A stretch of 64,000 nucleotides of DNA from an uncultured virus (IMG/VR IMGVR_UViG_3300037601_000035) (IMGVR_UViG_3300037601_000035), one strand, 5' to 3'. Numbered from the stretch's first letter, positions 12,968 through 27,464 are shown. Notes: generated from the sequence alone by a model not told the origin. Made by a program: numbers and translations.

Positions 12968-13200
12968 AAAGAATTTCCAGTTTCTGATTTACAAGTTGGT
13001 GACAGAATAGAATTACAATTTGATGTAGAATATGGTGATGATATTTTATATGCTGGAGATTATGAAGTAGTAAAGCCTCGAGGTCCTCATGGAGTGTATT
13101 TATTATCTCCTAGTTATACAGAACCTTTTAGAATTGAAAAAAGATCTTCTTTACCTTATATTAAATATTAAAAGAAAAATAAAAATTAAAAATTTTTTCA

Positions 13201-13289
13201 AAAAACTTTAAAAAATATTTTTTTATTACAAATAAAGTTGCTATATTACAATTCATTAAAAAACAAAACAAAAATAATTTTAATATATA
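13201..13289 (+). promoter_or_regulatory. Promoter block of tRNA operon 1 (near-duplicate of 25599-25686)
   Basis: About 90 bp shared with the region upstream of operon 2; contains TTTTTTATT..TATATTACA and AATATATA. Confidence 0.75.
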
Positions 13290-13298
13290 GATTATAAA

Positions 13299-13436
13299 AT
13301 GAAAAACAATATCACAAATATTACCCTAACACAAACGACACTTGATCAAAGTCAAGCATTATCGTCGCTTCAGTTATGTGCCGATTATCCGTGGGCATTT
13401 GGAAGGGTTATATTTAATGGTATACAAAATATGTAA
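13299..13436 (+). CDS. Attenuator leader peptide 1 (45 aa): MKNNITNITLTQTTLDQSQALSSLQLCADYPWAFGRVIFNGIQNM
   Basis: Translated by hand; codons 9-33 use only T,L,Q,D,S,A,C,Y,P,W, the amino acids of the downstream tRNAs. Confidence 0.8.
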   Translation: MKNNITNITLTQTTLDQSQALSSLQLCADYPWAFGRVIFNGIQNM

Positions 13437-13466
13437 ATATATTTTAATTAAATACGAAATTAAAAC

Positions 13467-13507
13467 AAACCCTTTCAGAAGAAATTTTGAAAGGGTTTTT
13501 CTTTTTT
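13467..13507 (+). terminator. Attenuator terminator 1
   Basis: AAACCCTTTCAGAA-GAAA-TTTTGAAAGGGTTT plus T-tract; 5' arm can instead pair with 13398-13409. Confidence 0.85.
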
Positions 13508-13522
13508 ATAGTAAAAGAAAAT

Positions 13523-13535
13523 TGTTCATTGAAAA
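13523..13535 (+). promoter_or_regulatory. boxA-like antitermination site
   Basis: TGTTCATTGAAAA, similar to the rrn-leader boxA GTTCTTTGAAAA, just before the first tRNA. Confidence 0.55.
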
Positions 13536-13551
13536 GTAGAATGTATAAAAC

Positions 13552-13638
13552 AGAAGATCTGAGTATTGGTGAACTCACCTGTCTTGAAAACAGCTGACGT
13601 CGAAAGGGGTCTTTTCGGTTCGAATCCGGAATCTTCTG
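13552..13638 (+). tRNA. tRNA-Ser(TGA)
   Basis: AGAAGAT/ATCTTCT acceptor; loop CTTGAAA; long variable arm. Confidence 0.85.
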
Positions 13639-13724
13639 CAGTGTAACTATTATGATGACTCTTAGGAGTCTGACTATATTAAAAATATTTAGGAAATTTG
13701 GACATTATAATAGTTACTATTTTT

Positions 13725-13797
13725 GGGATAGAAGTGTTAATGGAAACACGCCGCATTGTCACTGCGGAAATTGTCGGTTCGATCCCGATGTATCCCG
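13725..13797 (+). tRNA. tRNA-Asp(GTC)
   Basis: CCGCA-TTGTCAC-TGCGG; T loop GGTTCGATCC. Confidence 0.9.
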
Positions 13798-13868
13798 CAA
13801 TATTTAGGTACGGTAATACCCGTTAAAGTAAATGGATTCTTGTCGTAAGACCAGCCTAAATTTTTTAT

Positions 13869-13941
13869 CAGTCTGTAGCTCAGTTGGTAGAGTACACCGT
13901 TTGGGGCGGTGGGGCCGCCGGATCGTGACCGGCCAGACTGA
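13869..13941 (+). tRNA. tRNA-Pro(TGG)
   Basis: CACCG-TTTGGGG-CGGTG; CAGTCTG/CAGACTG acceptor. Confidence 0.9.
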
Positions 13942-13945
13942 CAAC

Positions 13946-14020
13946 ATTTGCATCGTATAATTGGAAGTACACTTACTTGTTTTGTAGGTAAAGGCAATGG
14001 TTCGATTCCATTTGCAAATA
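13946..14020 (+). tRNA. Atypical tRNA-like element (nominal anticodon GTT)
   Basis: ATTTGCA/TGCAAAT acceptor; D and T arms present; loop TTGTTTT lacks purine 37. Confidence 0.5.
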
Positions 14021-14026
14021 TGTCAT

Positions 14027-14099
14027 GGGACAATAGCTCAATCGGGAGAGCACTGGTTTTGCAAATCAGAGGTTGTGGGTTCAATCCCCATTTGTTCCA
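14027..14099 (+). tRNA. tRNA-Ala(TGC)
   Basis: CTGGT-TTTGCAA-ATCAG; G3:U70 pair present. Confidence 0.9.
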
Positions 14100-14111
14100 C
14101 ATTTTTAATAT

Positions 14112-14193
14112 GCCAGTATCGAGCCGTGGGAGCTCAGGCGGATTGTAAACCCGTCCCGGAAACGGTATATAGGTTCGACTCCTATTGCTGGCA
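14112..14193 (+). tRNA. tRNA-Tyr(GTA)
   Basis: Loop TTGTAAA; long variable arm CCGGAAACGG. Confidence 0.85.
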
Positions 14194-14200
14194 CATTTAT

Positions 14201-14271
14201 TCCCTTGTAGTGTAATGATAGCACAGTTCACTTTGAATGAACTAGTCTCGGTTTGAATCCTGGCAAGGGAG
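14201..14271 (+). tRNA. tRNA-Gln(TTG)
   Basis: GTTCA-CTTTGAA-TGAAC. Confidence 0.9.
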
Positions 14272-14275
14272 CAAT

Positions 14276-14360
14276 AGTAGATTTGGGATATTGGTAATCC
14301 TAGCATGTTTGCTAAACATGTGGCCCTTGTGGTCTAAGTGTTCGATTCACTTATCTACTG
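14276..14360 (+). tRNA. tRNA-Ser(GCT)
   Basis: CATGT-TTGCTAA-ACATG; long variable arm. Confidence 0.85.
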
Positions 14361-14376
14361 CATTTTTTAATAACAT

Positions 14377-14462
14377 GCTCCCATGGCGAAATTTAGGTAG
14401 GCGCTCAGGACTTAAAATCCTGTGATCGAAAGGTCGTCCCGGTTCGAGTCCGGGTGGGAGTA
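14377..14462 (+). tRNA. tRNA-Leu(TAA)
   Basis: CAGGA-CTTAAAA-TCCTG; long variable arm. Confidence 0.92.
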
Positions 14463-14478
14463 CATCTAACGAGTAATT

Positions 14479-14808
14479 ATGAAACTTAAACAAGTAAAGT
14501 ATTTTTGTAGAAATAACACTAAATCAGGAATTGATTCTTTTGATAATTCAGTAAAGAATGTAATTGATGGAAGAGTTATTTTTTATATGATGGATTCTCA
14601 AGGAATGTCTTTTGATATTTTAATGGATTTATTAAATAATAAAAATATGGGTTTTGATGTAGAAACTTTTATTATTGCTGCAAAGGAAAGTAAAAATTAT
14701 AGAAAAGATAGATTAAGATTATTATTTGAATATAGTTCTCCTAATAAAGAAAAATATTTAGATTTTATGGAAAAGGTAGATTATTTACTTGATAAAATAT
14801 TTGATTAA
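14479..14808 (+). CDS. Small protein inside the tRNA array; resembles a helical segment of alanyl-tRNA synthetase
   Basis: IDGRVIFYMMDSQGMSFDIL resembles the AlaRS G..AF.LYDTYGFP.DL motif. Confidence 0.45.
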   Translation: MKLKQVKYFCRNNTKSGIDSFDNSVKNVIDGRVIFYMMDSQGMSFDILMDLLNNKNMGFDVETFIIAAKESKNYRKDRLRLLFEYSSPNKEKYLDFMEKVDYLLDKIFD

Positions 14809-14812
14809 ATAT

Positions 14813-14892
14813 GCGTCGGTGGCAGATAGGCAATGCAGCGGTCTCCAAAACCGTGTCGAAAGACTATGTGGGTTCAAATCCTACCCGGCGTG
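14813..14892 (+). tRNA. tRNA-Trp(CCA) with extra variable-arm hairpin
   Basis: GCGGT-CTCCAAA-ACCGT then GTC-GAAA-GAC. Confidence 0.88.
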
Positions 14893-14898
14893 CACAAA

Positions 14899-14972
14899 GC
14901 CTCGTTAGCTTAATTGGCTAGAGCGACACCGTTGTATCGTGTTAGGTCTCAGTTCGAATCTGAGACGAGGCT
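14899..14972 (+). tRNA. tRNA-Thr(TGT)
   Basis: GCCTCGT/ACGAGGC acceptor; loop GTTGTAT. Confidence 0.8.
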
Positions 14973-14979
14973 CATGAAT

Positions 14980-15065
14980 TCCCGCGTAGGCCAGAGGTGA
15001 GTCAGCCCGTTTAGACCGGGTGGTAACGTAAGATACAGTACGAGTTCGAATCTCGTCGCGGGGAC
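14980..15065 (+). tRNA. tRNA-Leu(TAG)
   Basis: GCCCG-TTTAGAC-CGGGT; long variable arm. Confidence 0.85.
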
Positions 15066-15098
15066 ATTATTAATCTAAAAGGAAAATATATACTTTAA

Positions 15099-15719
15099 GT
15101 GATAAAAATATATATGAACTTTTTTAAACTTTTCGAATCCTTTATTAGTGAAAATAGAATAGATAATCTATATAATGTGCTTAATAAATCAAATGAAGAA
15201 ATATTTGATTTATTAATTAACATTAAAGGTGTTGATTCTATTTTAAATAAATTAGGGTTAAAAGGAAAAACAGGAAAAACTGCTTCTCTTAAGGAAATGC
15301 AAATGTTGGCTTCTGCTTTAGATAGACCTTTTTGGTATAGTTCTTTACCTGTATCTTATTTCTTTTCTAGTCCAGAAAAACTTCCTGAAAGTACTTCTTT
15401 ACTTCATTTTACAAATAGACCAGATGAGATAATTAAAAAAGGATTTATTCACGGTACTGAAGATTTTAATAAACTTGGTATGTCATGGGGTAGTATGTCG
15501 GGTGGTAAACCTGGATGGAATTACGCATTTAGATTAGAAGATATTATTAAGTATTATGGATCTATAGAAAAAGCTAAACAACATTGGGGAAGAGAAAAGG
15601 TTATTGAATTTGAAGCTCCTGGTATTTTAGTTTGGCATCATGGAGATCAAGTAGATCAAGTTTTGTTTTGGGGCCCTGACGCAAAGAATATTAGAAAATA
15701 TAAGTCTTCTAATGGATAA
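15099..15719 (+). CDS. Putative virion-packaged protein, possible ADP-ribosyltransferase-like fold (start probably 15114)
   Basis: Leader KLFESFISE; LLHFT...IIKKGF motif. Confidence 0.45.
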   Translation: MIKIYMNFFKLFESFISENRIDNLYNVLNKSNEEIFDLLINIKGVDSILNKLGLKGKTGKTASLKEMQMLASALDRPFWYSSLPVSYFFSSPEKLPESTSLLHFTNRPDEIIKKGFIHGTEDFNKLGMSWGSMSGGKPGWNYAFRLEDIIKYYGSIEKAKQHWGREKVIEFEAPGILVWHHGDQVDQVLFWGPDAKNIRKYKSSNG

Positions 15720-15751
15720 AAACTTTTCCTTATTGTATAAGTATAATAAAT

Positions 15752-16114
15752 ATGGAAAAACTTATACAATTATATTCGAATTTATTTAAAGCTGCTTCAG
15801 AAGATATTAAAGAAGGTCCCATAGAATGGGAAGATTTTTTAGAAGGAGAAAAAGAATTTTTAAAATCATTTAATCTTGCTTATAGTTATTTATATTATTT
15901 TAAAGAGCTTTTAAATATTCCTTATGATGTATTCTTAGATGCTGATTTAGATATTAGATTTGTATTTTTTAAAAGAGAAGACACTTTTTCTATTTGTTTT
16001 ACAACTGAAGGTACTTTAGTCTTTGCAACTTCTGAATATTTAATTAAACCTTTTGAAGAAGAAGCTTCTATTGAAACATTTCTTAAAATTAAAAAACTAA
16101 TATTAGAAGGTTGA
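15752..16114 (+). CDS. Hypothetical protein
   Basis: ORF after AAACTT-N16-TATAAT at 15720-15747. Confidence 0.6.
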   Translation: MEKLIQLYSNLFKAASEDIKEGPIEWEDFLEGEKEFLKSFNLAYSYLYYFKELLNIPYDVFLDADLDIRFVFFKREDTFSICFTTEGTLVFATSEYLIKPFEEEASIETFLKIKKLILEG

Positions 16115-16115
16115 A

Positions 16116-16844
16116 ATGTATTATCAAAAATATACAAATTTAGATTTATTAAAATTAGCAGAACTTAATAAAGATGTTTATAAACAACCTAATCCTTTTC
16201 CTTCAATTTATTTTGATAATTTTTTTAAAGAAGATTATTTAACAGAAGTTTTAAATGAATTTCCTGATCTTTCTAGACAAAAAGAAATTTCTTCTTTTAA
16301 TAATCAAAATGAAAAGAAATTTGCTTCTAATGGAGATATTTTATTTGGAGAAAAAACAAGAGAACTTTTAAATTTTTGTAATTCAAAATATTTTTTAAAT
16401 TTTCTTCAAACTATTACAGGAATAAATGAACCTTTAATAGGAGATCCCTATTTTCTTGGAGGAGGTCTTCATGAAATTAAAAAGGGTGGATTGCTTGAAG
16501 TTCACGCAGATTTTAACAAACACTCTCTTCTAAATCTTGATAGAAGAATAAACGTACTTATTTATCTAAATAAAGATTGGAAAGAAGAATATGGTGGTCA
16601 CTTTGAATTATGGGACAAAGAAATGAGCGGTCCTCCTATTCAACTTTTACCTATATTCAATAGAATATGTATTTTTTCAACTACTGATTTTTCATATCAT
16701 GGACATCCTAATCCATTAACTTGTCCAGAAAATATGTCAAGAAAGTCCTTGGCTCTTTATTACTATAGTAACGGAAGACCTCAAGAAGAAATAAATACAG
16801 GACTAGAAAATCATTCTACATTATTCAAAAAGAGAACAAAATGA
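16116..16844 (+). CDS. 2OG-Fe(II) oxygenase
   Basis: GGGLH, HADFN (HxD), YLNKDW...GG.FELW, SYHG, RKSLALYYY. Confidence 0.9.
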   Translation: MYYQKYTNLDLLKLAELNKDVYKQPNPFPSIYFDNFFKEDYLTEVLNEFPDLSRQKEISSFNNQNEKKFASNGDILFGEKTRELLNFCNSKYFLNFLQTITGINEPLIGDPYFLGGGLHEIKKGGLLEVHADFNKHSLLNLDRRINVLIYLNKDWKEEYGGHFELWDKEMSGPPIQLLPIFNRICIFSTTDFSYHGHPNPLTCPENMSRKSLALYYYSNGRPQEEINTGLENHSTLFKKRTK

Positions 16845-17092
16845 TTGAGATTAAACTTGATATTAAACTTGGTATAAACGATATTGAAAGCGTTACAGTT
16901 CTTACTGATCATTTATCAGTCGATGAAGGAAAGTATTTAAGACGTAATAAGGAAACAATCTTTAATTATCTTAGAGAAGGTTTAGAACATGTTCGTAGTA
17001 AATATTTATTTGAACTAAGCATACCAAAAGTAAAAAACCTTATAACTGAAGAGTTAGAAGAATATGTAAATCAAAAAATTAAAACTTGCTAA
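16841..17092 (+). CDS. Hypothetical protein; its stop codon overlaps the 5' end of tRNA-Cys
   Basis: Coupled to the upstream ORF. Confidence 0.55.
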   Translation: MIEIKLDIKLGINDIESVTVLTDHLSVDEGKYLRRNKETIFNYLREGLEHVRSKYLFELSIPKVKNLITEELEEYVNQKIKTC

Positions 17093-17159
17093 CGTACCCA
17101 AGTGGTTAGGGAACTGCCTGCAAAGCAGATACACGGGAGTTCGAATCTCTCCGTTAGCT
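17088..17159 (+). tRNA. tRNA-Cys(GCA)
   Basis: CTGC-CTGCAAA-GCAG; GCTAACG/CGTTAGC acceptor; U73. Confidence 0.88.
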
Positions 17160-17164
17160 CGAAC

Positions 17165-17203
17165 ATTAACCAGAGGTGTACAGATGACTTCTGGTTAATT
17201 TTT
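17165..17203 (+). terminator. Probable terminator ending tRNA operon 1
   Basis: TTAACCAGAGGT...ACTTCTGGTTAA plus T-run. Confidence 0.6.
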
Positions 17204-17282
17204 ATCTAAAGGTATAGGTAACAGTGTAATAACAATAAAAATCCTTCTGGTGATGAATCTGAGGATAGAATAAGGAAAACGT

Positions 17283-17765
17283 ATGAAACAATTTAGATTA
17301 TTTAGAACTTCTGATGTTATAGAAGAAGATTATATCAGATATATTGAAAACTTCTTGGAGAAAAATCCTGGTTGCAAAGTGGCTGTAGGGACAGATTCTA
17401 AATGTAGAACAAGTAAAAGAAGAATTGTTTATGCTACGTGCATTGCTATATTTTATCCTGGAGTAGATGGATATGATAAAGGTGCTCATGTTATTTATTC
17501 TAAAGAAAAATTAGTAGGGAAGATGCCTTTATTTGAAAGACTTTGGGAAGAAGTTGATAGATCTAGAATAATAGCATCTGAAATAGAAGATGAATTACAA
17601 GTTCCTGTTGAAATTCATGTTGACATTAATCCTGATAAAGACTTTAAATCTAATGTTGCTTATCAACCTGCTATAGGTATGTTACAAGGAATGGGATATA
17701 CTGTTTTAGCTAAACCGGAAGCCCCCGCTGCTTCATGCGCAGCAGACGTTCTAGTGAATAGATAA
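17283..17765 (+). CDS. RNase H-like YkuK/DUF458 family protein
   Basis: VGTDS, RLWEEV..S, EIHVDIN, KPEAPAAS..AD. Confidence 0.85.
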   Translation: MKQFRLFRTSDVIEEDYIRYIENFLEKNPGCKVAVGTDSKCRTSKRRIVYATCIAIFYPGVDGYDKGAHVIYSKEKLVGKMPLFERLWEEVDRSRIIASEIEDELQVPVEIHVDINPDKDFKSNVAYQPAIGMLQGMGYTVLAKPEAPAASCAADVLVNR

Positions 17766-17831
17766 AAATATTTTTTTATTTAAAATTTTTTTCTTAAGTT
17801 ACAATAATTCAATTTTTAATAAAGAGGAATA

Positions 17832-20024
17832 ATGGGACTTGCGTCTTCAAGAAAAAGATTTGTAAAAAGAAAACTTCTTACTCAAGATCATTTTAAAAGA
17901 CTATCTGAAGGAGATCCTTCTAAAAGTTATAAGTATCTTGAAAAGATGTGTGAATATGTTTCTTATGATAGAGCAAACATAAAAACAATAATAGATGAAG
18001 TTAAAGTTTTTGATTTTTTAGACAATACATATTTAAGCAATTCTGATATTCAAAATATTCCAAACTATTTAGAATTTCAAAGTATTATTAAAGATGCTTT
18101 AGAAAAGAAAAAAGAAATAGAATTAGTTAAAACGAAAAAGAATCATTTTGATATAATTGTTGACGATGAAAATTATTTAATAGTGTCTCCACATACTGAA
18201 GAATCTTCTATTAAATATGGCCAAGGAACTAAATGGTGTACTTCTTCTAAAGAATCTTTGAATCGTTTTGATCAATATAGAAAAGAATCTACTTTATATT
18301 ATATTCATAATAAGAAATTACCAGAAGTTGATCCTAATCATAAAATAGCACTTCAAGTATTTCTTGATGATAAAAGAGTTGATGAACATTGGAATGCAGT
18401 TGATAACAATATTTCTCCTCCTGAGTATATTGTAAATTTAAAAGAAAAATATAATTTTAAATTTTTTGAATTACCTGAAATTGAATATGAAAATGAGTAT
18501 GAAAGATACGGATTAGATATTGATAAAATTGTTTTTAATACAGATGGATCTATTGATTATCATGGAGACGTAAATCTTTCAAATAAAAAATTGACTAAGA
18601 TACCATTTAACTTTAGAAACGTCTATGGTCATTTTGATGTAAGTAACAACAAATTAATTTCTTTAAAAGGATGTCCTGAAAAAACATATAAATTTCATTG
18701 TGGTTGGAATCAATTAGTTTCATTAGAACATGGTCCAAAAAGTGTCACAACAGTCTATAATGCTGAACATAATAAATTAAAAAATATTGATTTTATTGCA
18801 ACAGAATATACTAAGTGTAATATTTATTTACAGCATAATGAAATTTCATCTATAGATTATAACATTATTTCTAATTTATCTTTTGTTTCTGCCAATGTTT
18901 TTTATATTTCATATAATTTATTAGAAGATGTAATATTAAAACCATTTTCATTTTTTAAAAATTTATATTTTTCTAATAATAAAATTAAAAAAATTATTGA
19001 TAAAGCTCTTTGGTTAGAGTTTGAACAACTAGATCTTTCTTCTAATAAATTAAAAAAATTCGGATACCAGGCAAATTCTTATACAATACACAATTTAAAT
19101 TTAGCATCTAATCAAATAGAAAATATAACCTTTGAATTTTTATCAGTAAGAAATTTAAATTTAAATAACAACAGAATTAAAAAACTTAAATCTATACTTT
19201 TATTTAAATGTGATTCATTATATTTATCCGACAATCTTATAGAAGAAGTAGATTTAGAAAATTTTATAATTTCTACAAAATTAGATTTAAATAAAAATTT
19301 AATTTGTTTTAACAAAATAAAATTTGCTAAAGCTAGAGGATATATTCAAAATCTTTTTCTTAATGATAATCCTATGTCAATTAAGAAAACTCCGTCTTCT
19401 AATAAAATAGATCGTATCGTCGCAGGAATAATTCATAACATTGAAAATTTGCTTTCATATAAAAAATTAGATTTTGAAAAACCTGAAAAAATAGATGATT
19501 TAGAAAAAGAAATTTATGACATCTACAAAAATTTTAAATTATATCAACAGCTATCCTTAAAGTTTACTTTTTCTGAAATTATTCGAATCGGGAATTATAA
19601 TTTGGGAGATTGTATGACAGGGTCTATTCAAGTAGAAAAAGAACGGCCTTATAGATGGATCACTGATGTTCCATTGCCTGGTACACAAGGAGATTTTATT
19701 TCAAGAAGAGGGATAGCGGGTTTTGGATCTCATAGTATTCAAACAACACCAAGAGAGAATATACTTAAAGTAGTTGGTCATCTAGATTATCCTTCTTCTT
19801 TAACAGTTAAATTAACAAATAAAAAAGATGATTCTAGAGAAGCGTTTGAAGAAGTAGACGGACAATTTAGATTATTTGGTCCATTAAATCACTCTTCATC
19901 AGAAACTTTCAGACTTTCTAAAAGTAGAGAACGTACTACTATAGAACAGCTGGAATCAGTTTCATATATTGTTGAAAGATATGAATCGCTTACTACGACA
20001 ACGGAAAATAGAGGAAACGAATGA
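17832..20024 (+). CDS. Leucine-rich-repeat protein with KYGQGTKWCT domain (paralog A)
   Basis: LxLxxNxI repeats; N-terminal half very similar to the next gene. Confidence 0.8.
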   Translation: MGLASSRKRFVKRKLLTQDHFKRLSEGDPSKSYKYLEKMCEYVSYDRANIKTIIDEVKVFDFLDNTYLSNSDIQNIPNYLEFQSIIKDALEKKKEIELVKTKKNHFDIIVDDENYLIVSPHTEESSIKYGQGTKWCTSSKESLNRFDQYRKESTLYYIHNKKLPEVDPNHKIALQVFLDDKRVDEHWNAVDNNISPPEYIVNLKEKYNFKFFELPEIEYENEYERYGLDIDKIVFNTDGSIDYHGDVNLSNKKLTKIPFNFRNVYGHFDVSNNKLISLKGCPEKTYKFHCGWNQLVSLEHGPKSVTTVYNAEHNKLKNIDFIATEYTKCNIYLQHNEISSIDYNIISNLSFVSANVFYISYNLLEDVILKPFSFFKNLYFSNNKIKKIIDKALWLEFEQLDLSSNKLKKFGYQANSYTIHNLNLASNQIENITFEFLSVRNLNLNNNRIKKLKSILLFKCDSLYLSDNLIEEVDLENFIISTKLDLNKNLICFNKIKFAKARGYIQNLFLNDNPMSIKKTPSSNKIDRIVAGIIHNIENLLSYKKLDFEKPEKIDDLEKEIYDIYKNFKLYQQLSLKFTFSEIIRIGNYNLGDCMTGSIQVEKERPYRWITDVPLPGTQGDFISRRGIAGFGSHSIQTTPRENILKVVGHLDYPSSLTVKLTNKKDDSREAFEEVDGQFRLFGPLNHSSSETFRLSKSRERTTIEQLESVSYIVERYESLTTTTENRGNE

Positions 20025-22213
20025 GTTTACAAACAGCAAAGAAAAGATTTTTAAAAAGAAAGTTGATTAATTATGAAGACTTTCATAAATTATCTAAATC
20101 AGATCCTTCTAAAAGTTATAAGTATCTTGAAAAGATGTGTGAATTTTATGTATACGATAAAGTAGAAATAGATATTTTATGTAAAGAAGTTGATAATTTC
20201 CATTCCATTCCAGATTCTTATTTAGAAAATTCAGATATTCAATCTATTCCAAATCACATTGAATTTGAAAAAATTGTTAAAGATGCTTTAAATAAGAAAC
20301 ACGAAAAAGAAAATAAAAAATTCTCTAAAGACAATTCTATTGTTTTAGTTGATGATGAAGAATATCAAATAGTAATTCCTAATTCTATAGATTCGTCTAT
20401 AAAATATGGTCAAGGAACTAAATGGTGTACGGCTGCTAAAGAAGATAATTATTTTAATTCTTATAGAGAAGATAATACTTTGTATTATATTTGGAATAAA
20501 AAATTATCTAAAAATAGTTATGTTTATAAAATAGCAGTAGTAGTTAATAAGGATAATATAATTAATTCTGTATGGAATGCAAAAGATCATCAAATTAATG
20601 AGCATATAGTAGAACCTATCATAAGTAAATATAAAGAAAAATTTACCTTTAAATATGTTGAAAGAACATATACTAATGAATATGAAAAATACGGGTTAGA
20701 TACAACTAAGATAACGTTTAATAGCGATGGTACTATAAATTATGACGGTAATGTTGATTTAATAGGAAAAAAATTAACTAAGATACCGTTTAATTTTAAA
20801 TATGTAAACGGATATTTTAATATAAGTAATAATCTAATATCTAGTTTAAAAGGATGTCCTGAAAGAATAGAAAGTTTTTTTAGTGCTAATTATAACAAAA
20901 TTAAAAGTTTAAAATATGGACCTATGTTTGTAGGAACTGCTTATAGTGTAACCAATAATCAATTAAGAACTATAAAAGGAATTGCCAAGGAAATAGGTTT
21001 TACTGTCGATTTAGATAGCAATAAAATATCTAACGTTAAAGGATTTGATACTATTAAATTTAAGAATAAAACAAATTTATATTTAAATGGAAATAAATTA
21101 AAAAATTCTCAATTAAAATATTTAAAAATTTATGAATGGAATAATGTAAGTTTAGCAAGTAATAAATTATCAGGAACTATCGATTCTAAATGTTTAGATT
21201 TCCCTGTATTTGAAAAAGTAGATATGGATAGATTAATATTACATGATAATGAAATATCAATTTTTAAAGTATATTTTAATTTTATAGATCAATTAAGTAT
21301 TGGGAATAATAAATTAACATATTGTACGCTTCCCGGAAACGCACGTAATGTAGATTTATCATTTAATTTAATTGAAAGGGTAGAAAATAAATCTATTTCA
21401 GATAGAAATATTAATTATTTAATATTAGATAACAATAAAATTAATCAAATAAATTTTAGAAATATATTTATTAGTGGAGAGTTATCTCTGAAAAATAATA
21501 ATATTGAAAAAAATTCTTTTATTCCTATTGAAAATGATCATTATATTAATACAATTCATTTAGGAGGTAATCCTATAAATATAGAATATGATTTTAAATT
21601 TCCTAAAAATTTTAATGTTACTAAAATAAATAATCAATCTACGATTAATTTATACGAATATGGTGATAATGATATATTTTTATCAAATAGATATAAATTG
21701 ATTAATAAAATAAACAAAAAAGAAAAGTTAGATTATGATGAATATTATCAATTATGGAATTCTAAAGAACAGCTTGTAATAAATTTTGATTCTATTAAGG
21801 AAGAAGAATTAATAGATCCGCCCATTGCTAGTGCGCCTGGAGATTTTAAAGAAATGCTTGAAAGAGCATTTAAAAATTCATTAAAAGAACATATTCTTGA
21901 TAGTAATGACATAGTACCTTCACGGCCGTCGAGAATGCCTCCTCCAACAAGGGGCCTCCATTATATTGATTATGTTTATGAACATCCAGAATCTTCAGGT
22001 ACTGTTAATCTTGGATTCAAAATTGTAAATAAAGATCAACCGGGTTTATTCGATTCAATGTATCAAAATATTGATGTTAATGGAAAAACTATATTTGAAT
22101 CTAAAGATAGTGATTTTCATATAAATGATCTTGAGGAAAAATTAAAAAATGAATCTTCTGCAGTTAAAAATATGCTTAACGAATGGACACAATTTATAGA
22201 GAGACAACAATGA
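20021..22213 (+). CDS. Leucine-rich-repeat protein with KYGQGTKWCT domain (paralog B)
   Basis: Same architecture and length as paralog A. Confidence 0.8.
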   Translation: MSLQTAKKRFLKRKLINYEDFHKLSKSDPSKSYKYLEKMCEFYVYDKVEIDILCKEVDNFHSIPDSYLENSDIQSIPNHIEFEKIVKDALNKKHEKENKKFSKDNSIVLVDDEEYQIVIPNSIDSSIKYGQGTKWCTAAKEDNYFNSYREDNTLYYIWNKKLSKNSYVYKIAVVVNKDNIINSVWNAKDHQINEHIVEPIISKYKEKFTFKYVERTYTNEYEKYGLDTTKITFNSDGTINYDGNVDLIGKKLTKIPFNFKYVNGYFNISNNLISSLKGCPERIESFFSANYNKIKSLKYGPMFVGTAYSVTNNQLRTIKGIAKEIGFTVDLDSNKISNVKGFDTIKFKNKTNLYLNGNKLKNSQLKYLKIYEWNNVSLASNKLSGTIDSKCLDFPVFEKVDMDRLILHDNEISIFKVYFNFIDQLSIGNNKLTYCTLPGNARNVDLSFNLIERVENKSISDRNINYLILDNNKINQINFRNIFISGELSLKNNNIEKNSFIPIENDHYINTIHLGGNPINIEYDFKFPKNFNVTKINNQSTINLYEYGDNDIFLSNRYKLINKINKKEKLDYDEYYQLWNSKEQLVINFDSIKEEELIDPPIASAPGDFKEMLERAFKNSLKEHILDSNDIVPSRPSRMPPPTRGLHYIDYVYEHPESSGTVNLGFKIVNKDQPGLFDSMYQNIDVNGKTIFESKDSDFHINDLEEKLKNESSAVKNMLNEWTQFIERQQ

Positions 22214-22608
22214 AAAATTTAAAAATAGCAGTTGATTTTGATGGAACTTGCGTGACACATGAATATCCTAACGTAGGAAAAACAGTTCCTTACGTAGTTG
22301 ACGTTTTAAAGAAACTTCAAGCAAAAGGATATTTATTAATTTTAAATACAATGCGATCTGGAAAAGAATTAAAAGATGCCGAAAAATGGTTTTCGGATAA
22401 TGAAATTATATTATACGGATCAAATAAAGATCCTGATCAAACTTCTTGGACAAAATCACCAAAAGTATATTCTAACATTTATATAGATGATGCTGCTTTA
22501 GGAGCTCCTCTTACAAATAAACTAGGAAGCTATAATACTTATAGAGGAAGACCTTTCGTAGATTGGAAATTAGTTGAAAAATGGTTTAAACAAAATAAAC
22601 TTTTATAA
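22210..22608 (+). CDS. HAD-superfamily phosphatase (BT0820-like)
   Basis: IAVDFDGTCV.HEYP and IYIDD motifs; ATG overlaps the previous stop. Confidence 0.8.
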   Translation: MKNLKIAVDFDGTCVTHEYPNVGKTVPYVVDVLKKLQAKGYLLILNTMRSGKELKDAEKWFSDNEIILYGSNKDPDQTSWTKSPKVYSNIYIDDAALGAPLTNKLGSYNTYRGRPFVDWKLVEKWFKQNKLL

Positions 22609-22641
22609 ATGTTTTAAGTATAATTAATAAAAGAGGTTTCA

Positions 22642-22968
22642 ATGATAGTTCCAAAATTAAAAATTAATAAGATGAAACAACATCTAGATAAATATGCAAT
22701 TGTTGTTAAATCTAAAATAAAAAATAGTCAATATCTTTATCATGCAAATAAAGAACATCCTTCTTATAAAGCGCGATTTAGAACTGGAAAAAATCCATTA
22801 ATTATAATTACTCATTCAAATGCAAGAGAATTGTATGAATATGCTTTAAATGAATTACATCTAGATTCAGGTTCTTTTGCTATTTGTGATATTATCTCAG
22901 ATAAAAAACCTATTCCTGTAGATCCTTATGGGCAACATAGAGAAATAGAAATTCCAGTATTACAATGA
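22642..22968 (+). CDS. Hypothetical protein
   Basis: ORF after AAACTT-N16-TATAAT at 22597-22624. Confidence 0.55.
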   Translation: MIVPKLKINKMKQHLDKYAIVVKSKIKNSQYLYHANKEHPSYKARFRTGKNPLIIITHSNARELYEYALNELHLDSGSFAICDIISDKKPIPVDPYGQHREIEIPVLQ

Positions 22969-23306
22969 ACGAACAAGAAAATAGATTTCAAAAATTTATA
23001 GAAAAACAAAGAGCATGCATTAGAAAAATGCGATTAGATTTTCGAAAAGAATTAAAAAATATTTATAATAAAAACGAAAGAAGAATGAAAATAAAGTATA
23101 AGAAAAGAGAAAATGGGGAATACGATTTCAGAATCGTTGGAGGAAACGGTGAAATAATTTTGGTTTCTGAAGGTTACTCAACTAAAGGAAATATGAAAAA
23201 GGGAATTAAAAATTTCTTAGAAGGACTTTCTGATTTAGAACAATATAATTCACAAGATCCTAAACAACTAAATGAAAATTTATCTAATATAGAAGAAGAT
23301 ATTTAA
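22965..23306 (+). CDS. DUF1508/YegP-like protein
   Basis: NGEY.FRI...NGEII..SEGYSTK....KGI. Confidence 0.7.
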   Translation: MNEQENRFQKFIEKQRACIRKMRLDFRKELKNIYNKNERRMKIKYKKRENGEYDFRIVGGNGEIILVSEGYSTKGNMKKGIKNFLEGLSDLEQYNSQDPKQLNENLSNIEEDI

Positions 23307-23421
23307 ATTATTTTCACAGAAATGTAAAAATAATTTTTTTATTTAAAAATTTTTTCTTATATTACATTTAATTAAACAAACAAATTATTTTTTTTTTTTA
23401 TTTTTTAAAAGGAGTTATAAA

Positions 23422-23973
23422 ATGGACGGATTAATTAACTTAAGAAATGCTGGTCCTTGTATTTCATCACCAGACTTGCATAAATTTTTACTTGAAAATC
23501 TTCAAGATCAAGTTATAGATACTCAAATGACTGCTGCTAAATTATATGGATATATGAATACTCGTGAATATCCGAAATTTAGAGCAGATGGTGATAGAAA
23601 AACATATTTTAGAATTGAAGATTTTATAGAAATGTTTAATTCTAAAGAAAATGATGACCCTGCTTTTGCAGAAATTGCTGAAGTTATTGCAGATGAAACA
23701 GGATTCTCTAATAACGAAGAGACTGATGAAGAATCTTCTTCTGATTTTAATCGTGAAGATGCATTAAACAATTTATCTCAAATGAATATTTTAGATAAAA
23801 CTATGGTATCTGGAATTGAAATAGATGGAGTATTTTTTATGACTACCCATGATGCTATGGGAAATGTAAAAACTGCATTTGAAATTCCTTCAAGCGCTTT
23901 AGCAATGGCTCAAAATTCTGAGAAAGCTAAAATAGTAGTTGCTGGAATGGTATTAAAATTACTTAATAGATAA
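23422..23973 (+). CDS. Hypothetical early protein
   Basis: AGGAG ribosome-binding site and class-A promoter at 23334-23366. Confidence 0.65.
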   Translation: MDGLINLRNAGPCISSPDLHKFLLENLQDQVIDTQMTAAKLYGYMNTREYPKFRADGDRKTYFRIEDFIEMFNSKENDDPAFAEIAEVIADETGFSNNEETDEESSSDFNREDALNNLSQMNILDKTMVSGIEIDGVFFMTTHDAMGNVKTAFEIPSSALAMAQNSEKAKIVVAGMVLKLLNR

Positions 23974-23979
23974 AATTTA

Positions 23980-24147
23980 AGCATGATAACAGACCTTTTT
24001 CAGTTGATTCAGTATTTGATTCCCCAATGAAATTCCTGAGAAGTCTAGAGATGAAATCTTCATCGACATAGAGACAAATTGAAAAACTTATTTATGCTAC
24101 CCCAGGTCGACTATTCTTTTATTGGCGTTTAGGAAATAGTCGACCTT
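23980..24147 (+). ncRNA. Candidate structured intergenic RNA plus downstream long hairpin
   Basis: AGCATGA/TTATGCT and TTTTTCAGTT/AATTGAAAAA nested stems; GATGAA-atc-TTCATC hairpin; AGGTCGACTATT/AATAGTCGACCT. Confidence 0.45.
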
Positions 24148-24173
24148 TTAATTTTAATAAAAGAGAAAAAAAC

Positions 24174-24581
24174 ATGAAATTTAAAGTTGGTGATTTCTGC
24201 TATTCAGAATTTGATTTAGTAGAAATTAAAGAAATAGAAGAAAATCCTACTAGGATTACTAGAATATCAGATGGATATTTTAATAGAGTTTCTCATAATT
24301 TAAATGATGATTGTCTTCCTATAAGTTTAAGAACTAAAATTTTATCTGAAAAAGTAAAAGAATACCACAGTAACATATTAGAATTAAGTTCTCCAAATCT
24401 TAATTTTCCGGATATTCATAGAAAATATGTACATGATTGGAAACAAATGTGTTTAGTTGAAGATGCTGAAGAAGCAACTGAAATGTTACGAGAGTTAGAA
24501 AATTTTACTTATTCAATTATCGAAAAAGTAAATCAAAATCAATTAGAAGAAATAGATAATATTAAAATATTTAAAGGATAA
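24174..24581 (+). CDS. Hypothetical protein
   Basis: MKFKVGD start common in phage proteins. Confidence 0.6.
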   Translation: MKFKVGDFCYSEFDLVEIKEIEENPTRITRISDGYFNRVSHNLNDDCLPISLRTKILSEKVKEYHSNILELSSPNLNFPDIHRKYVHDWKQMCLVEDAEEATEMLRELENFTYSIIEKVNQNQLEEIDNIKIFKG

Positions 24582-24584
24582 AAA

Positions 24585-25145
24585 ATGACTAATATGACTA
24601 AGGTTTTACAAGAAAAATTAAATCGTATATTTAATGAAGGTGTGCTTACTCATTATGATATGTACAACGAACAAAATTTAAATTTTAACTTATGTTTAAA
24701 ACCTACAAAAACTGAACCTATTTTAGATGCTACAGAAATGGAACTTACTGCAGTTTATGGAGATAATGGTAAAAAAGTATCTATCCCTAATAAATACTTT
24801 GAAGTATATTCAGGAGCAAATGATGACGATTCTTTATACAAAAGATTAATAAGTAATATCTTAAAAGTTTCTTTAAAATTATTAGAAGATTCTACTTCTC
24901 AAAATCTAACCATTATTTTAAATCAAAAAGTATATGATATTCTATATTTGAATTTAGGTGTAAATGAAAATACTCTTAAATTTAATTCTAAATCTTTATT
25001 AAATTCTAATTATTTAATAGATGGTGGAATACTACTTAATAACTTTCAAATATTTATAGATCCTACTATGAGTGATATAGATACTAAAGTTTGTATCTTA
25101 AATGAAAGCACAAATGAATCTCTAACCTTTTTAGTAGAAATCTAA
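24585..25145 (+). CDS. Hypothetical protein
   Basis: ORF only. Confidence 0.55.
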   Translation: MTNMTKVLQEKLNRIFNEGVLTHYDMYNEQNLNFNLCLKPTKTEPILDATEMELTAVYGDNGKKVSIPNKYFEVYSGANDDDSLYKRLISNILKVSLKLLEDSTSQNLTIILNQKVYDILYLNLGVNENTLKFNSKSLLNSNYLIDGGILLNNFQIFIDPTMSDIDTKVCILNESTNESLTFLVEI

Positions 25146-25170
25146 ATATATAATTTATTAAAAAATAATT

Positions 25171-25593
25171 ATGAATAACGAAAATATAGTAGAAAGTTAC
25201 AATGACTTTCATAGAATAAACGAAAACGAAGAAAGTAAAAATGATGTTTCAGAATCGATAATTTTAGTTGATAATGAAGATTATTTAATTGTTGTTCCTA
25301 AAAATTATGAAGACTCTGTTAAATATGGAAAAGGTGCTAAATGGATGCCTGCTTATACCGGATATGGTGGAGAATATTCTTTTGATTTATATAATGAACA
25401 AGGTACTTTGTACTATATTATAAACAAAAATCTCGATAGTGATGATTCATTATCTAAAATTGGAATTTATATAGATTCTAGAAATGATAGTAAACATATT
25501 TATGATGTAAATGATTATACTTTGAAATGGGAAGATTTACCAAAAGAAATTTTTGATCATTTACCTGAAGAGGAATTTATTCATAGAGATTAA
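25171..25593 (+). CDS. Putative internal protein: targeting leader plus stand-alone KYG.G.KW domain
   Basis: IVESYNDFHRINE; domain shared with the two LRR paralogs. Confidence 0.7.
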   Translation: MNNENIVESYNDFHRINENEESKNDVSESIILVDNEDYLIVVPKNYEDSVKYGKGAKWMPAYTGYGGEYSFDLYNEQGTLYYIINKNLDSDDSLSKIGIYIDSRNDSKHIYDVNDYTLKWEDLPKEIFDHLPEEEFIHRD

Positions 25594-25598
25594 TTTTA

Positions 25599-25686
25599 AA
25601 AAACTTTAAAAAATATTTTTTTATTACAAAGACATTTACTATATTACAATTCATTAAAAACAAAACAAAAATAATTTTAATATATA
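25599..25686 (+). promoter_or_regulatory. Promoter block of tRNA operon 2
   Basis: Near-identical to 13201-13289. Confidence 0.75.
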
Positions 25687-25715
25687 AATTATATTTTTAA
25701 AAACAATAAAGAAAA

Positions 25716-25844
25716 ATGCTTTCAAGAAATATACATAATAACATAAATAAGAATTTCAATATCGAAATGGGTCGTAAGAATCATTTTGGGAGAGAAATTT
25801 TTGTCGAGAATATTTCTGAGAAGCTGAACGTATTTAAAACGTAA
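25716..25844 (+). CDS. Attenuator leader peptide 2 (42 aa): MLSRNIHNNINKNFNIEMGRKNHFGREIFVENISEKLNVFKT
   Basis: Translated by hand; codons 4-33 use only R,N,I,H,K,F,E,M,G,V, the amino acids of the downstream tRNAs. Confidence 0.8.
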   Translation: MLSRNIHNNINKNFNIEMGRKNHFGREIFVENISEKLNVFKT

Positions 25845-25867
25845 ACTTTATTTAAATATAAAATTTT

Positions 25868-25904
25868 AAAAGCTTCTTAGGAAATATCTTAAGAAGCTTT
25901 TTTT
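25868..25904 (+). terminator. Attenuator terminator 2
   Basis: AAAAGCTTCTTAGGA-AATA-TCTTAAGAAGCTTTT plus Ts; 5' arm can instead pair with 25814-25825. Confidence 0.85.
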
Positions 25905-25912
25905 GTTATAAT

Positions 25913-25925
25913 AGTTCTTTGAAAA
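25913..25925 (+). promoter_or_regulatory. boxA-like antitermination site
   Basis: AGTTCTTTGAAAA just before the first tRNA. Confidence 0.65.
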
Positions 25926-25937
25926 TTTAGAAATAAC

Positions 25938-26011
25938 GCCCGAGTGGTCTAATTGGTCAGGACACTACACTTTCTATGTAGGGATTGCGAGTTCGAGTCT
26001 CGTCTCGGGTA
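25938..26011 (+). tRNA. tRNA-Glu(TTC)
   Basis: CTACA-CTTTCTA-TGTAG (unusual U37). Confidence 0.8.
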
Positions 26012-26027
26012 CACTTAAATGATAAAT

Positions 26028-26103
26028 CCGGTCGTAGCTAAGTTGGTGAAAGCATCCCACTCATAATGGGAAGATATCGAAAGTTCAAGTCTTTCCGGCC
26101 GGA
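26028..26103 (+). tRNA. tRNA with CAT anticodon (elongator Met or Ile2)
   Basis: TCCCA-CTCATAA-TGGGA. Confidence 0.85.
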
Positions 26104-26112
26104 CATTAATAT

Positions 26113-26186
26113 AGCAGGGTAGAGCAGATGGCCAGCTCGCGAGGTTCATATTCTCGAGGTCGTGGGTTCGAATCCCGCCCCTGCCA
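26113..26186 (+). tRNA. tRNA-Met(CAT), initiator-like
   Basis: A1:C72 mismatch; CGAGG-TTCATAT-TCTCG. Confidence 0.8.
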
Positions 26187-26192
26187 CTATAT

Positions 26193-26267
26193 GGGGAATT
26201 AGCTTAGTAGATTTAAAGCGCAACTTTTACAAAGTTGAGATCAAAGGTTTGAATCCTTTATTCCCTA
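26193..26267 (+). tRNA. tRNA-Val(TAC)
   Basis: CAACT-TTTACAA-AGTTG. Confidence 0.9.
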
Positions 26268-26273
26268 CAACAT

Positions 26274-26349
26274 GAACTGCTGGCGCAATTGGATTTAGCG
26301 CATCGGATTTTTACTCCGAGGGTTCCGGGTTCAAGTCCCGGGCAGTTCA
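26274..26349 (+). tRNA. tRNA-Lys(TTT)
   Basis: TCGGA-TTTTTAC-TCCGA. Confidence 0.9.
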
Positions 26350-26354
26350 CATAT

Positions 26355-26428
26355 ACACAACTAGCTTAATTGGTGAAAGCGCAGGTCTGATACACCTGAG
26401 AGTGAAAGTTCAAATCTTTCGTTGTGTA
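26355..26428 (+). tRNA. tRNA-Ile(GAT)
   Basis: CAGGT-CTGATAC-ACCTG. Confidence 0.9.
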
Positions 26429-26436
26429 CACGATAT

Positions 26437-26509
26437 TCCCTTGTAGCTCAATTGGAAGAGCGTAGGATTTCTAATCCTAAGGTTGGAGGTTCAAGTCCTC
26501 TCGAGGGAA
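26437..26509 (+). tRNA. tRNA-Arg(TCT)
   Basis: TAGGA-TTTCTAA-TCCTA. Confidence 0.92.
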
Positions 26510-26526
26510 CTTATTTTTTTAATAAT

Positions 26527-26600
26527 GCACCTATGTTGTTTAATTGCTAGCATGAAACCCTTCCAAGGTTTAGGTCTCGGTTGGAATCCGAGTAGGTGCT
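26527..26600 (+). tRNA. tRNA-Gly(TCC)
   Basis: AAACC-CTTCCAA-GGTTT; U73. Confidence 0.88.
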
Positions 26601-26713
26601 CAATATATGATACGTTTTTGAATAATTCTGTTTTATAACTAGCTTTGGTTTAGGCGAGCAGATTGAAGGAATTATCAGAAGTCTAGTAGTCTCTAGATTA
26701 TCATATTTTATAT

Positions 26714-26788
26714 GGACCCTTAACTTAAACGTGGTGAGAGTGCCTGGTTGAAGCCCAGGAAGTACTGGTTCGATTCCGGTAGGGTCCA
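26714..26788 (+). tRNA. tRNA-Phe(GAA)
   Basis: CCTGG-TTGAAGC-CCAGG. Confidence 0.88.
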
Positions 26789-26815
26789 CAATATTTAAAT
26801 TATAAGGATAATAAT

Positions 26816-27154
26816 ATGTGTATTTTTTGTTCTATTGTTAATAAAAAGATTCGATCGAATATCCAGTACGAAGATGATTTAGTACTTGCTTTTGATGATA
26901 TAAATCCAGTAGCAGATATTCATATATTGATTATTCCAAAAATTCATATTGTAAATTTATATGAAAAGAGTTCAGATGGTAAAGAATTAATTTATGGAAG
27001 AATGTTAAAAGTTGCATCTGATTTATCTCGTAAACATAAATTAAAAAATGGATTTAGAATAGTAATAAATAATGGAAAAGATGGACTTCAAGATGTTAAT
27101 CATTTACATATTCATTTAATAGGTGGAAGAAAGCTTTCATATCCTATAGCGTAA
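26816..27154 (+). CDS. HIT family (HinT-like) nucleotide phosphoramidase inside the tRNA array
   Basis: CIFC, AFDDINP, HILIIPK.H, HLHIHLIGGR. Confidence 0.92.
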   Translation: MCIFCSIVNKKIRSNIQYEDDLVLAFDDINPVADIHILIIPKIHIVNLYEKSSDGKELIYGRMLKVASDLSRKHKLKNGFRIVINNGKDGLQDVNHLHIHLIGGRKLSYPIA

Positions 27155-27164
27155 TTTAAACTTT

Positions 27165-27235
27165 TCTCCTGTAATTTAAAGGTAAAATGCCATACTGTTA
27201 ATATGGTCTTGGGGGTTCAAGTCCCTCCGGGAGAG
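27165..27235 (+). tRNA. tRNA-Asn(GTT)
   Basis: CCATA-CTGTTAA-TATGG. Confidence 0.9.
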
Positions 27236-27245
27236 CACTTTATAA

Positions 27246-27318
27246 GCCCATATAGCTCAACTGAAAGAGCACTTGAATACGAATCGAGAGGTTGTGAGTT
27301 TGAATCTTACTATGGGTT
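27246..27318 (+). tRNA. tRNA-Arg(ACG)
   Basis: CTTGA-ATACGAA-TCGAG. Confidence 0.85.
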
Positions 27319-27326
27319 CTTGATAT

Positions 27327-27404
27327 GGTGATTGTAGCTTAATTGGTTAAAGCCCTTGGTTGTGAGCCAAGACGATGCGAGTTCGACTCTCGTGAATCAC
27401 CCCA
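27327..27404 (+). tRNA. tRNA-His(GTG) with G-1 and encoded CCA
   Basis: CTTGG-TTGTGAG-CCAAG. Confidence 0.9.
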
Positions 27405-27407
27405 AAT

Positions 27408-27448
27408 AAAAATCCTTACTAAAAAATAAATTAGTAAGGATTTTTTTT
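27408..27448. terminator. Bidirectional terminator between tRNA operon 2 and the convergent gene
   Basis: AAAAATCCTTACTAA...TTAGTAAGGATTTTT. Confidence 0.8.
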
Positions 27449-27464
27449 ATTATGAAAGATAAAT

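Follow-up and report, generated by a model that had tools for sequence, protein, structure and literature searches.

The closest described systems to the one considered here are the leader-peptide attenuators of the enterobacterial amino-acid operons, which include the trpL, hisL, leuL and pheL leaders and the multivalent leaders thrL and that of ilvGMEDA. In the pheST operon of E. coli, a leader attenuator of the same kind, pheM, controls an aminoacyl-tRNA synthetase. Here, we analyze a stretch of 64,000 nucleotides from an uncultured virus (IMG/VR IMGVR_UViG_3300037601_000035), called the window below, in which two tRNA operons each lie behind a short open reading frame (ORF) and an intrinsic terminator, and in which most of each ORF is drawn from the ten amino acids served by the tRNAs that follow it. 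We consider it probable that each of these operons is governed by a ribosome-mediated transcription attenuator of the trp/his type, a reading that draws on the anatomy of the locus, on statistics, on alternative RNA pairings and on the co-variation of leaders and arrays in other phages.

How do the phage leaders compare with the described systems? Like trpL-type attenuators, they have a short ORF rich in regulatory codons, helices that can be numbered 1:2, 2:3 and 3:4, and a terminator ahead of the regulated genes, and the read-out would be set by the position of the ribosome. Unlike them, the system belongs to a phage, the regulated genes are tRNAs and not biosynthetic enzymes, and the molecule sensed would be the product itself. 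Each phage leader would sense ten amino acids, compared to one to three for the trpL-type leaders, with a sensor of 25-30 codons that takes up all of the loop enclosed by segments 1 and 2. With pheST (pheM), the phage leaders share the leader-peptide attenuation of a component of the translation apparatus as opposed to a biosynthetic pathway, although pheST responds to a single amino acid, Phe, and what it controls is a synthetase rather than a set of tRNA genes. T-box riboswitches likewise tie tRNA status to terminator read-through upstream of translation-related genes, but in their case uncharged tRNA is bound by the RNA itself, and an ORF is not required.

Leader-peptide attenuation is textbook material; its use on tRNA genes appears to be unreported. 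A first-pass annotation of this DNA had proposed the leader-peptide attenuators and had noted that no attenuator was known to have been described for phage tRNA arrays. Every sequence-level prediction of the proposal that was tested here was borne out, and a literature search, with most subscription journals outside its reach, likewise turned up no report of tRNA genes, phage or other, under the control of a leader peptide. The main text of a paper on huge phages (PMC7162821) mentions neither attenuation nor leaders, tRNA arrays or clusters, or terminators.

Two tRNA operons and their leader ORFs

ARAGORN places 24 tRNA genes in the whole 64-kb window, all on the + strand and in two groups; the leaders, promoter blocks, terminators, motifs and RNA segments described below lie on the same strand. 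Array 1 (13552-15065) carries, according to ARAGORN and Rfam, Ser-tga, Asp, Pro, an atypical Asn-gtt element, Ala, Tyr, Gln, Ser-gct, Leu-taa, Trp, Thr and Leu-tag, and a distal tRNA-Cys lies at 17088-17160 (ARAGORN). Array 2 (25938-27404; ARAGORN and Rfam) carries Glu, two tRNAs with the anticodon CAT, Val, Lys, Ile, Arg-tct, Gly, Phe, Asn, Arg-acg and His. Taken together, the two operons supply tRNAs for the full set of 20 amino acids, divided 10+10 between them. These are the two amino-acid lists of the first-pass annotation, and ARAGORN recovers every anticodon but that of Gly: the tRNA-Gly at 26529-26598 (anticodon TCC) is missed by that program, relaxed settings included, and is found by Rfam alone as a weak match (30.1 bits against a cut-off of 29). 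The GTT element (13946-14020), which had been singled out as atypical, is indeed unusual, with 33% G+C, a T at position 37 and an Rfam tRNA score of 44.6 bits. In one of the CAT tRNAs (26113-26187), the first acceptor pair is mismatched and the second pair of the D stem is A:T, features that we take to be initiator-like under tRNA identity rules; the remaining CAT tRNA may be a Met or a lysidine-Ile tRNA.

The distal tRNA-Cys is presumably co-transcribed with array 1. Between 15065 and 17088, the + strand holds only two weak terminator-like sites of 6 pairs each, and the next copy of the promoter motif described below is found at 17764, past the tRNA-Cys. Within array 1, a 109-amino-acid ORF (14479-14808) shows a weak likeness to class II alanyl-tRNA synthetase (PF01411; 18.9 bits, below the cut-off of 30.3), and array 2 contains a HIT-family gene (PF01230; 26816-27154) that is presumably co-transcribed with the tRNAs. 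Some HIT enzymes hydrolyze aminoacyl-adenylates, which would link the latter gene thematically to translation.

Leader ORF 1 (13299-13436; 45 codons, MKNNITNITLTQTTLDQSQALSSLQLCADYPWAFGRVIFNGIQNM) and leader ORF 2 (25716-25844; 42 codons, MLSRNIHNNINKNFNIEMGRKNHFGREIFVENISEKLNVFKT) each contain a long run, here called the sensor run, that is confined to the amino acids of the array behind it. Run 1 comprises codons 9-33 (13323-13397), 25 codons that specify only, and all of, S, D, P, A, Y, Q, L, W, T and C. Run 2 comprises codons 4-33 (25725-25814), and its 30 codons specify only, and again all of, E, M, V, K, I, R, G, F, N and H. The runs, as originally reported, hold up codon by codon, and so does the claim that they exceed chance. 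In a six-frame scan of the window, run 1 is the longest set-1 run (next 14 codons) and run 2 the longest set-2 run (next 20 codons), and no other run contains all ten residues. With six-frame residue frequencies, all ten residues required and 300 candidate codon positions allowed ahead of an array, a matched run has a probability of about 1.7e-9 for leader 1 and about 2.4e-7 for leader 2.

The match extends to individual anticodons. Under simple wobble, the run offers a cognate codon for 12/12 array-1 anticodons (GTT left out) and for 11/12 array-2 anticodons, the exception being Val-tac, which meets only GTC; both members of the Ser, Leu and Arg isoacceptor families are sampled. The G+C content at third codon positions is 0.32 in run 1 and 0.30 in run 2 compared to 0.116 in phage genes (P <= 0.0006), and rare synonymous codons are enriched in both leaders. 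When ranked against other ATGs, the start context of leader 1 lies at the 97th percentile (gene-like) and that of leader 2 at the 89th, in the lower gene range. A search of public assemblies with the leader 1 peptide uncovered two variants, each with the 45-codon frame kept, while leader 2 found itself alone, on a 193-kb contig. In the 82%-identical leader 1 variant, both changes within the run stay in the set (Ser22Pro and Ala33Thr). With only two leader 1 variants and no leader 2 variant, a substitution test is ruled out, and the in-set changes (2/3 over both variants) are no evidence either way.

Upstream of the ORFs, about 100 nucleotides (nt) are nearly identical at the two leaders, and this identity collapses at the ORF start, the ORFs themselves being unrelated. 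The block, which contains the promoter and the 5' untranslated region (5'UTR), occupies 13196-13298 in its first copy, nearly identical to 25594-25691, and 25594-25715 in its second; its 40-nt core has 2 copies in the window, both at leaders, against 0 expected. A promoter-like motif (ATTTTTTTATTTAAAAA...CTTATATTACAT) recurs at 17764, 23327, 33262-33331, 49124, 51064 and 56324 and is possibly read by the phage's own sigma factor, encoded at 10130-10945; the leader blocks form a distinct variant of it. The exact 22-nt promoter word is absent from IMG/VR.

Downstream of each leader lies the terminator that had been noted, a strong hairpin followed by a T-run. Terminator 1 (segments 3 and 4) is found at 13467-13498 with 14 pairs and a loop of 4, and terminator 2 at 25868-25901 with 15 pairs and a loop of 4; a further terminator closes operon 2 at 27408-27445. 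Between terminator and first tRNA, both operons have the common motif GTTCWTTGAA, as GTTCATTGAA at 13524-13533 and as GTTCTTTGAA at 25914-25923. The broader pattern GTTC[AT]TTG[AG][AC] occurs on the + strand only, preceding tRNA genes, both in the window and in LR756500.1, one of the phage records discussed below.

Operons for stable RNAs carry antitermination sites of the rrn boxA type, for which an E. coli consensus exists. The phage motif resembles rrn boxA in lying between a promoter or terminator and stable-RNA genes, and in LR756500.1 (reverse complement of 60001-120000, position 25064) GTTCTTTGAA stands directly 5' of a tmRNA-like stretch starting GGGGCTGA, a start that we take to be typical of tmRNA genes. 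It differs from rrn boxA in matching the E. coli consensus only in part, and a Nus-factor site here is putative. The motif that was first called boxA-like does follow both terminators, and its identity as boxA is unproven. LR756500.1 also carries a tRNA with a CTA anticodon (amber suppressor-like) and may, because of it, decode TAG as a sense codon.

Alternative RNA pairings and a proposed attenuation model

The RNA of the two leaders folds more strongly than shuffled sequences do, with z-scores of -4.9 for leader 1 and -5.8 for leader 2. In the full-length minimum-energy folds of both leaders, a helix between segments 1 and 2 forms together with the terminator (segments 3:4). Segment 1 of leader 1 lies at 13312-13331 (codons 5-11) and segment 2 at 13399-13420 (codons 34-41); in leader 2, the corresponding positions are 25718-25732 (codons 1-6) and 25810-25825 (codons 33-37). 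Segment 2 of each leader has a second possible partner, namely the 5' arm of the terminator, and the resulting antiterminator duplex is predicted at -16.2 kcal/mol for leader 1 and -17.9 kcal/mol for leader 2, energies reached by 0/1000 dinucleotide shuffles of the upstream region in each case. Both duplexes stop at ORF nucleotide 111-112 despite the unrelated sequences.

Ribosome position was modeled by folding the RNA downstream of a masked ribosome, up to the terminator loop. In both leaders, the antiterminator forms in silico with the A site at codons 10, 15, 20, 25 and 30, and is lost at codons 33, 36 and 40. That both runs end at codon 33 had been pointed out in the first-pass annotation, and the folds offer a reason, because a ribosome there would start to cover segment 2. 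In constrained folds (the direction of the constraint labels being taken from the printed structures), the state with the segment 1:2 helix and the terminator is ahead by 8.1 kcal/mol in leader 1 and 6.5 kcal/mol in leader 2 once the terminator has been transcribed. As long as segment 4 has yet to be made, the antiterminator state draws level or leads, the margins being 1.3 and 5.1 kcal/mol. A short ORF, matching codons, an intrinsic terminator, an antiterminator that excludes it and a switch that depends on ribosome position (the last in silico) are all found, as expected of an attenuator.

In the proposed attenuation model, transcription would begin at the shared phage promoter and a ribosome would start on the leader ORF. 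If the whole run is decoded fast, the ribosome would reach the ORF tail, where it would mask segment 2 or occupy the space between segments 2 and 3; formation of the terminator hairpin would follow, and the tRNA genes would be off. If the supply of even one of the ten cognate aminoacyl-tRNAs falls short, the ribosome would stall in the run and keep segments 1 and 2 apart, and the freed segment 2 would pair with the 5' arm of the terminator, such that RNA polymerase reads into the tRNA genes. We infer leader translation, the direction of this response and its natural trigger, for which starvation, loss of host tRNA and anticodon nucleases are candidates. Considering that the regulated product, tRNA, is the very molecule sensed, the circuit would amount to product feedback rather than amino-acid sensing, since extra tRNA relieves a shortage of tRNA but not a shortage of amino acid. 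With such feedback, the capacity to decode all 20 amino acids would be replenished as infection proceeds. More speculatively, a stall in the tail of leader 1, in which 11/12 codons belong to set 2, would favor termination of operon 1.

Matched leaders in other phages

The same design of leader, terminator and array recurs in seven other phage records, and leader composition tracks array content in them. The records are LR756500.1, LR756501.1, LR756502.1, LR756504.1, LR745206.1, Lak-B5 and one IMG/VR contig (G004), and the comparison phages were reached through the portal protein. In LR756500.1, MKAISVHIIHIWEHLLEEVNINIM precedes His-Glu-Val-Trp, MINLVNIIDNRRDDNNIIQSSWA precedes Asn, with Asp and Arg further on, and MKTLSTYPLGQAQTLGTPPITG precedes Ala, Leu, Pro, Tyr, Gln, Gly and Thr; all three units also have a 5'UTR of the window's AATTTTAATATATA type and the post-terminator motif. 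In the IMG/VR contig, the ORF MKTTLSLSLLSSLSSLKSGLSYA, a leader rich in Leu and Ser, and a terminator are followed by tRNA-Leu, tRNA-Ser, a 427-amino-acid ORF and five more tRNA-Leu genes. The 427-amino-acid ORF (locus L156, G004:C1:12000-20000, positions 1289-2572) has a HIGH motif and, judged by eye, is a candidate for a leucyl-tRNA-synthetase-like protein.

An antiterminator dependent on ribosome position appears in the folds of all four of these extra units (4/4; three from LR756500.1 and one from the IMG/VR contig). When the four are taken together with the two leaders of the window, the true pairing of leaders and arrays is the best of 720 permutations, and it ranks second when arrays are defined more strictly. 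No such leader is found in LR756500.1 before Ser-Ser, Lys-Met-Phe or several single tRNAs, and no tRNA matches were found in Tenacibaculum phage PTm1 or in three further genomes (G006-G008).

Twenty tRNA-rich stretches were taken from LR756502.1, LR745206.1, LR756504.1, LR756501.1 and Lak-B5. Among the leaders seen there, MTTSFQQQQQQQINRTD precedes four tRNA-Gln genes, MKTIAMIIRMRIIRPKMLG precedes Arg-Ile-Met, MKTVNTNIAIVEIAVIGGAEEGVMGV... precedes Glu-Ala-Ile-Val-Gly-Glu and, in Lak-B5, MKTLNMTYCMHPVCGMIHMFPCGGGRLM... precedes His-Pro-Arg-Arg-Gly-Gly-Cys-Met. The arrays of LR756502.1, LR745206.1, LR756504.1 and LR756501.1 (L173-L190) are sorted by isotype and contain tandem copies, such as Pro-Pro-Asp-Asp-Asp-Gln x4 and Leu x5, and some of their operons have a second leader nested within them, as with a poly-Gln leader before a Gln block.

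A scan with an objective rule was then run on eight records in all, the window plus the seven records (22 further stretches). The rule called for a hairpin with a T-run no more than 250 nt ahead of a tRNA; among ATG ORFs of 12-60 codons that ended near the hairpin, the longest was used. It returned 31 terminator-before-tRNA sites, of which 28 have a short ORF, although these 28 are not independent, because several of the phages are related and homologous leaders are counted repeatedly. The summed z of leaders paired with their own arrays, with background residue frequencies taken from this window, is 97.1, compared to a mean of 1.5 for random pairings (sd 8.5, maximum 45.7), and 0/100,000 random pairings reached it. 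The expected co-variation of leader and array in large phages was therefore observed, the own pairing beating every one of these random pairings. For 18/26 leaders the own array is the best match within the genome (chance about 6), and the leader contains every amino acid of its array in 25/28 sites. Complementarity between upstream RNA and the 5' arm of the terminator (p <= 0.05) is found at 21/28 sites, mostly near the ORF end. Three spurious-looking sites that were kept in the counts (28678 and 36291 in LR756500 and 1367 in L178) have no such complementarity, and the rule missed units that are visible by eye in L189 and L192.

Could the elements be genuine and yet report something other than the supply of particular aminoacyl-tRNAs? 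The alternative that survives best takes the attenuator or terminator as real but has it report general translation capacity or the stage of infection, for example through ribosome availability or the coupling of transcription and translation, with the match in composition as a secondary bias. In the folds, any slow ribosome does yield read-through, the ORFs lack set specificity at their heads and tails, and the codon enrichment covers rare codons in general. However, such a device has no need of a set-specific composition, and yet the other ten amino acids are wholly excluded for 25 and 30 codons, and leader composition tracks array content in other phages as well. We regard this explanation as improbable.

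Less probable still is an RNA switch that works without translation, by T-box-like binding of tRNA or through a protein, the frames being incidental or encoding small proteins with another role. The strong folding of both leaders would suit such a switch, as would the 45-amino-acid frame kept in the two leader 1 variants, with divergence like that of the portal protein (82% vs 82%). Against this, Rfam finds no T-box or other cis-regulatory family at E <= 1 in 12800-27800, with the exception of one sub-threshold match on the opposite strand that overlaps a tRNA gene. Nor would an RNA-only switch explain a match at the amino-acid level that is spelled with many synonymous codons (ACC, ACA and ACG for Thr; CTA, CTT and TTA for Leu), or the poly-Gln leaders before Gln tRNAs in other phages. 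That spurious ORFs in AT-rich spacers look matched by chance is hardly credible: AT-rich DNA does favor the K, N, I and F codons of set 2, in which the second-longest run reaches 20, but the probabilities given above (1.7e-9 and 2.4e-7) are minute, both runs are window-wide maxima placed exactly upstream of the right array, and the design recurs in other phages.

Ribosome-mediated attenuation is thus the reading that we prefer, and several observations weigh against it. The 10+10 split is not perfectly clean: the GTT element of array 1 is the sole overlap of the two amino-acid sets, leader 1 draws on set-2 amino acids at its head (K N N I T N I), where a stall should free segment 2 too, and the 96%-identical variant of leader 1 has an out-of-set change within the run (Ala20Val). 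The tail of leader 2 mixes the two sets, and four codons per run require four-way wobble or a lysidine-modified CAT tRNA. Many of the comparison records are related to each other, and other T4-like contigs lack matched leaders, with none at two loci (L085 and L126) and 0/6 at the loci of two further genomes (L162-L167 in G001 and G003). The model also assumes that the presumed Bacteroidota host couples transcription to translation. Finally, the folds give no clear default state for an untranslated leader, because the antiterminator matches or exceeds the segment 1:2 helix in stability until segment 4 has been made.

The phage and the meaning of its leaders

The window has a G+C content of 26.8%, and domain searches find genes for a T4-like portal, a sigma-70-type factor, topoisomerase subunits, an NAD-dependent DNA ligase and a protein with a type-IX-secretion sorting domain. 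It is therefore a piece of a large T4-like phage, the host of which, considering the sorting domain, is probably a member of the Bacteroidota. The protein in question, which has GEVED and type-IX-secretion C-terminal sorting domains and likewise points to a Bacteroidota host, is encoded at 46935-49049 on the - strand. Near-identical DNA occurs in contigs from 19 public runs, mostly pond metagenomes of 2019-2020, with no RNA run among them. No close relatives were found among GenBank phages, where DNA searches matched only short tRNA stretches, and the best GenBank match of the portal is at 36% identity, in LR756500.1. A portal scan of IMG/VR gave a single 35% match, without tRNAs, protein scans of IMG/VR gave no match to a 140-amino-acid ORF (see below) or to the protein P0020, and a portal-profile scan of GTDB genomes gave no match. 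The closest relatives in IMG/VR and JGI data (L002 and L003) have a portal of 58% identity and a synteny that stops at the gene after the sigma factor; their retrieved DNA contains no tRNA genes.

Repeated modules were seen as well. Tandem paralogous proteins of 730 amino acids (17832-20024 and 20021-22213) and the 140-amino-acid ORF (25171-25593) have a common N-terminal module (repeat families D4, D5 and D12), and neither the two proteins nor the ORF has a Pfam match. The adjacent ORFs 12023-12523 and 12533-12967 have almost identical 5' ends (MKNRIVENFSNWNKLNE..., 95% over 75 nt), and weaker copies of this type of ORF start lie at 25150 and 55571.

The window also encodes an Rnl1-type RNA ligase (PF09511; 49482-50525) and a Pnkp-type polynucleotide kinase-phosphatase (PF25109 and a kinase domain; 51398-52270). 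In T4, a pair of this kind mends tRNA that has been cut by a host anticodon nuclease. Because such a tRNA-repair pair is encoded, cleavage of host tRNA may be a plausible pressure on the phage, although this is context and not proof.

What is distinctive in the window is its completeness: the 20 amino acids are shared out cleanly, 10+10, between two long leaders, which jointly leave none uncovered. Perhaps the two attenuators together form a monitor of decoding capacity for 20 amino acids, an extension that we advance tentatively and hold to be rather doubtful when all of its parts are taken together. Each sensor run would poll every isoacceptor of its own operon, and a shortage in set 2 would terminate operon 1 through the tail of leader 1, which would set a cross-priority between the two halves. 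The trigger would be the loss of host tRNA in infection, whether by shut-off, by tRNA-cleaving defense nucleases or by a mismatch in codon demand, and the leaders would act as a counter-defense sensor working beside the Rnl1/Pnkp pair. Phage translation would thereby be self-regulating and largely independent of host tRNA, and the arrangement would be a general, hitherto undescribed rule of tRNA gene control in large Bacteroidota phages.

The simpler proposal, that each operon has its own attenuator, already offers an annotation rule, since a matched short ORF with a terminator before a tRNA array finds units in huge-phage genomes that have been deposited. If the proposal is true, one leader monitors ten amino acids at once, and the pair, as a naturally occurring sensor of decoding capacity across the 20 amino acids, could be put to use as a reporter. 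For phages at large, both the purpose of their tRNAs and the timing of tRNA expression are open questions. If the leaders work as proposed, the tRNA genes of this phage would be under direct product feedback, by the oldest known logic of attenuation.

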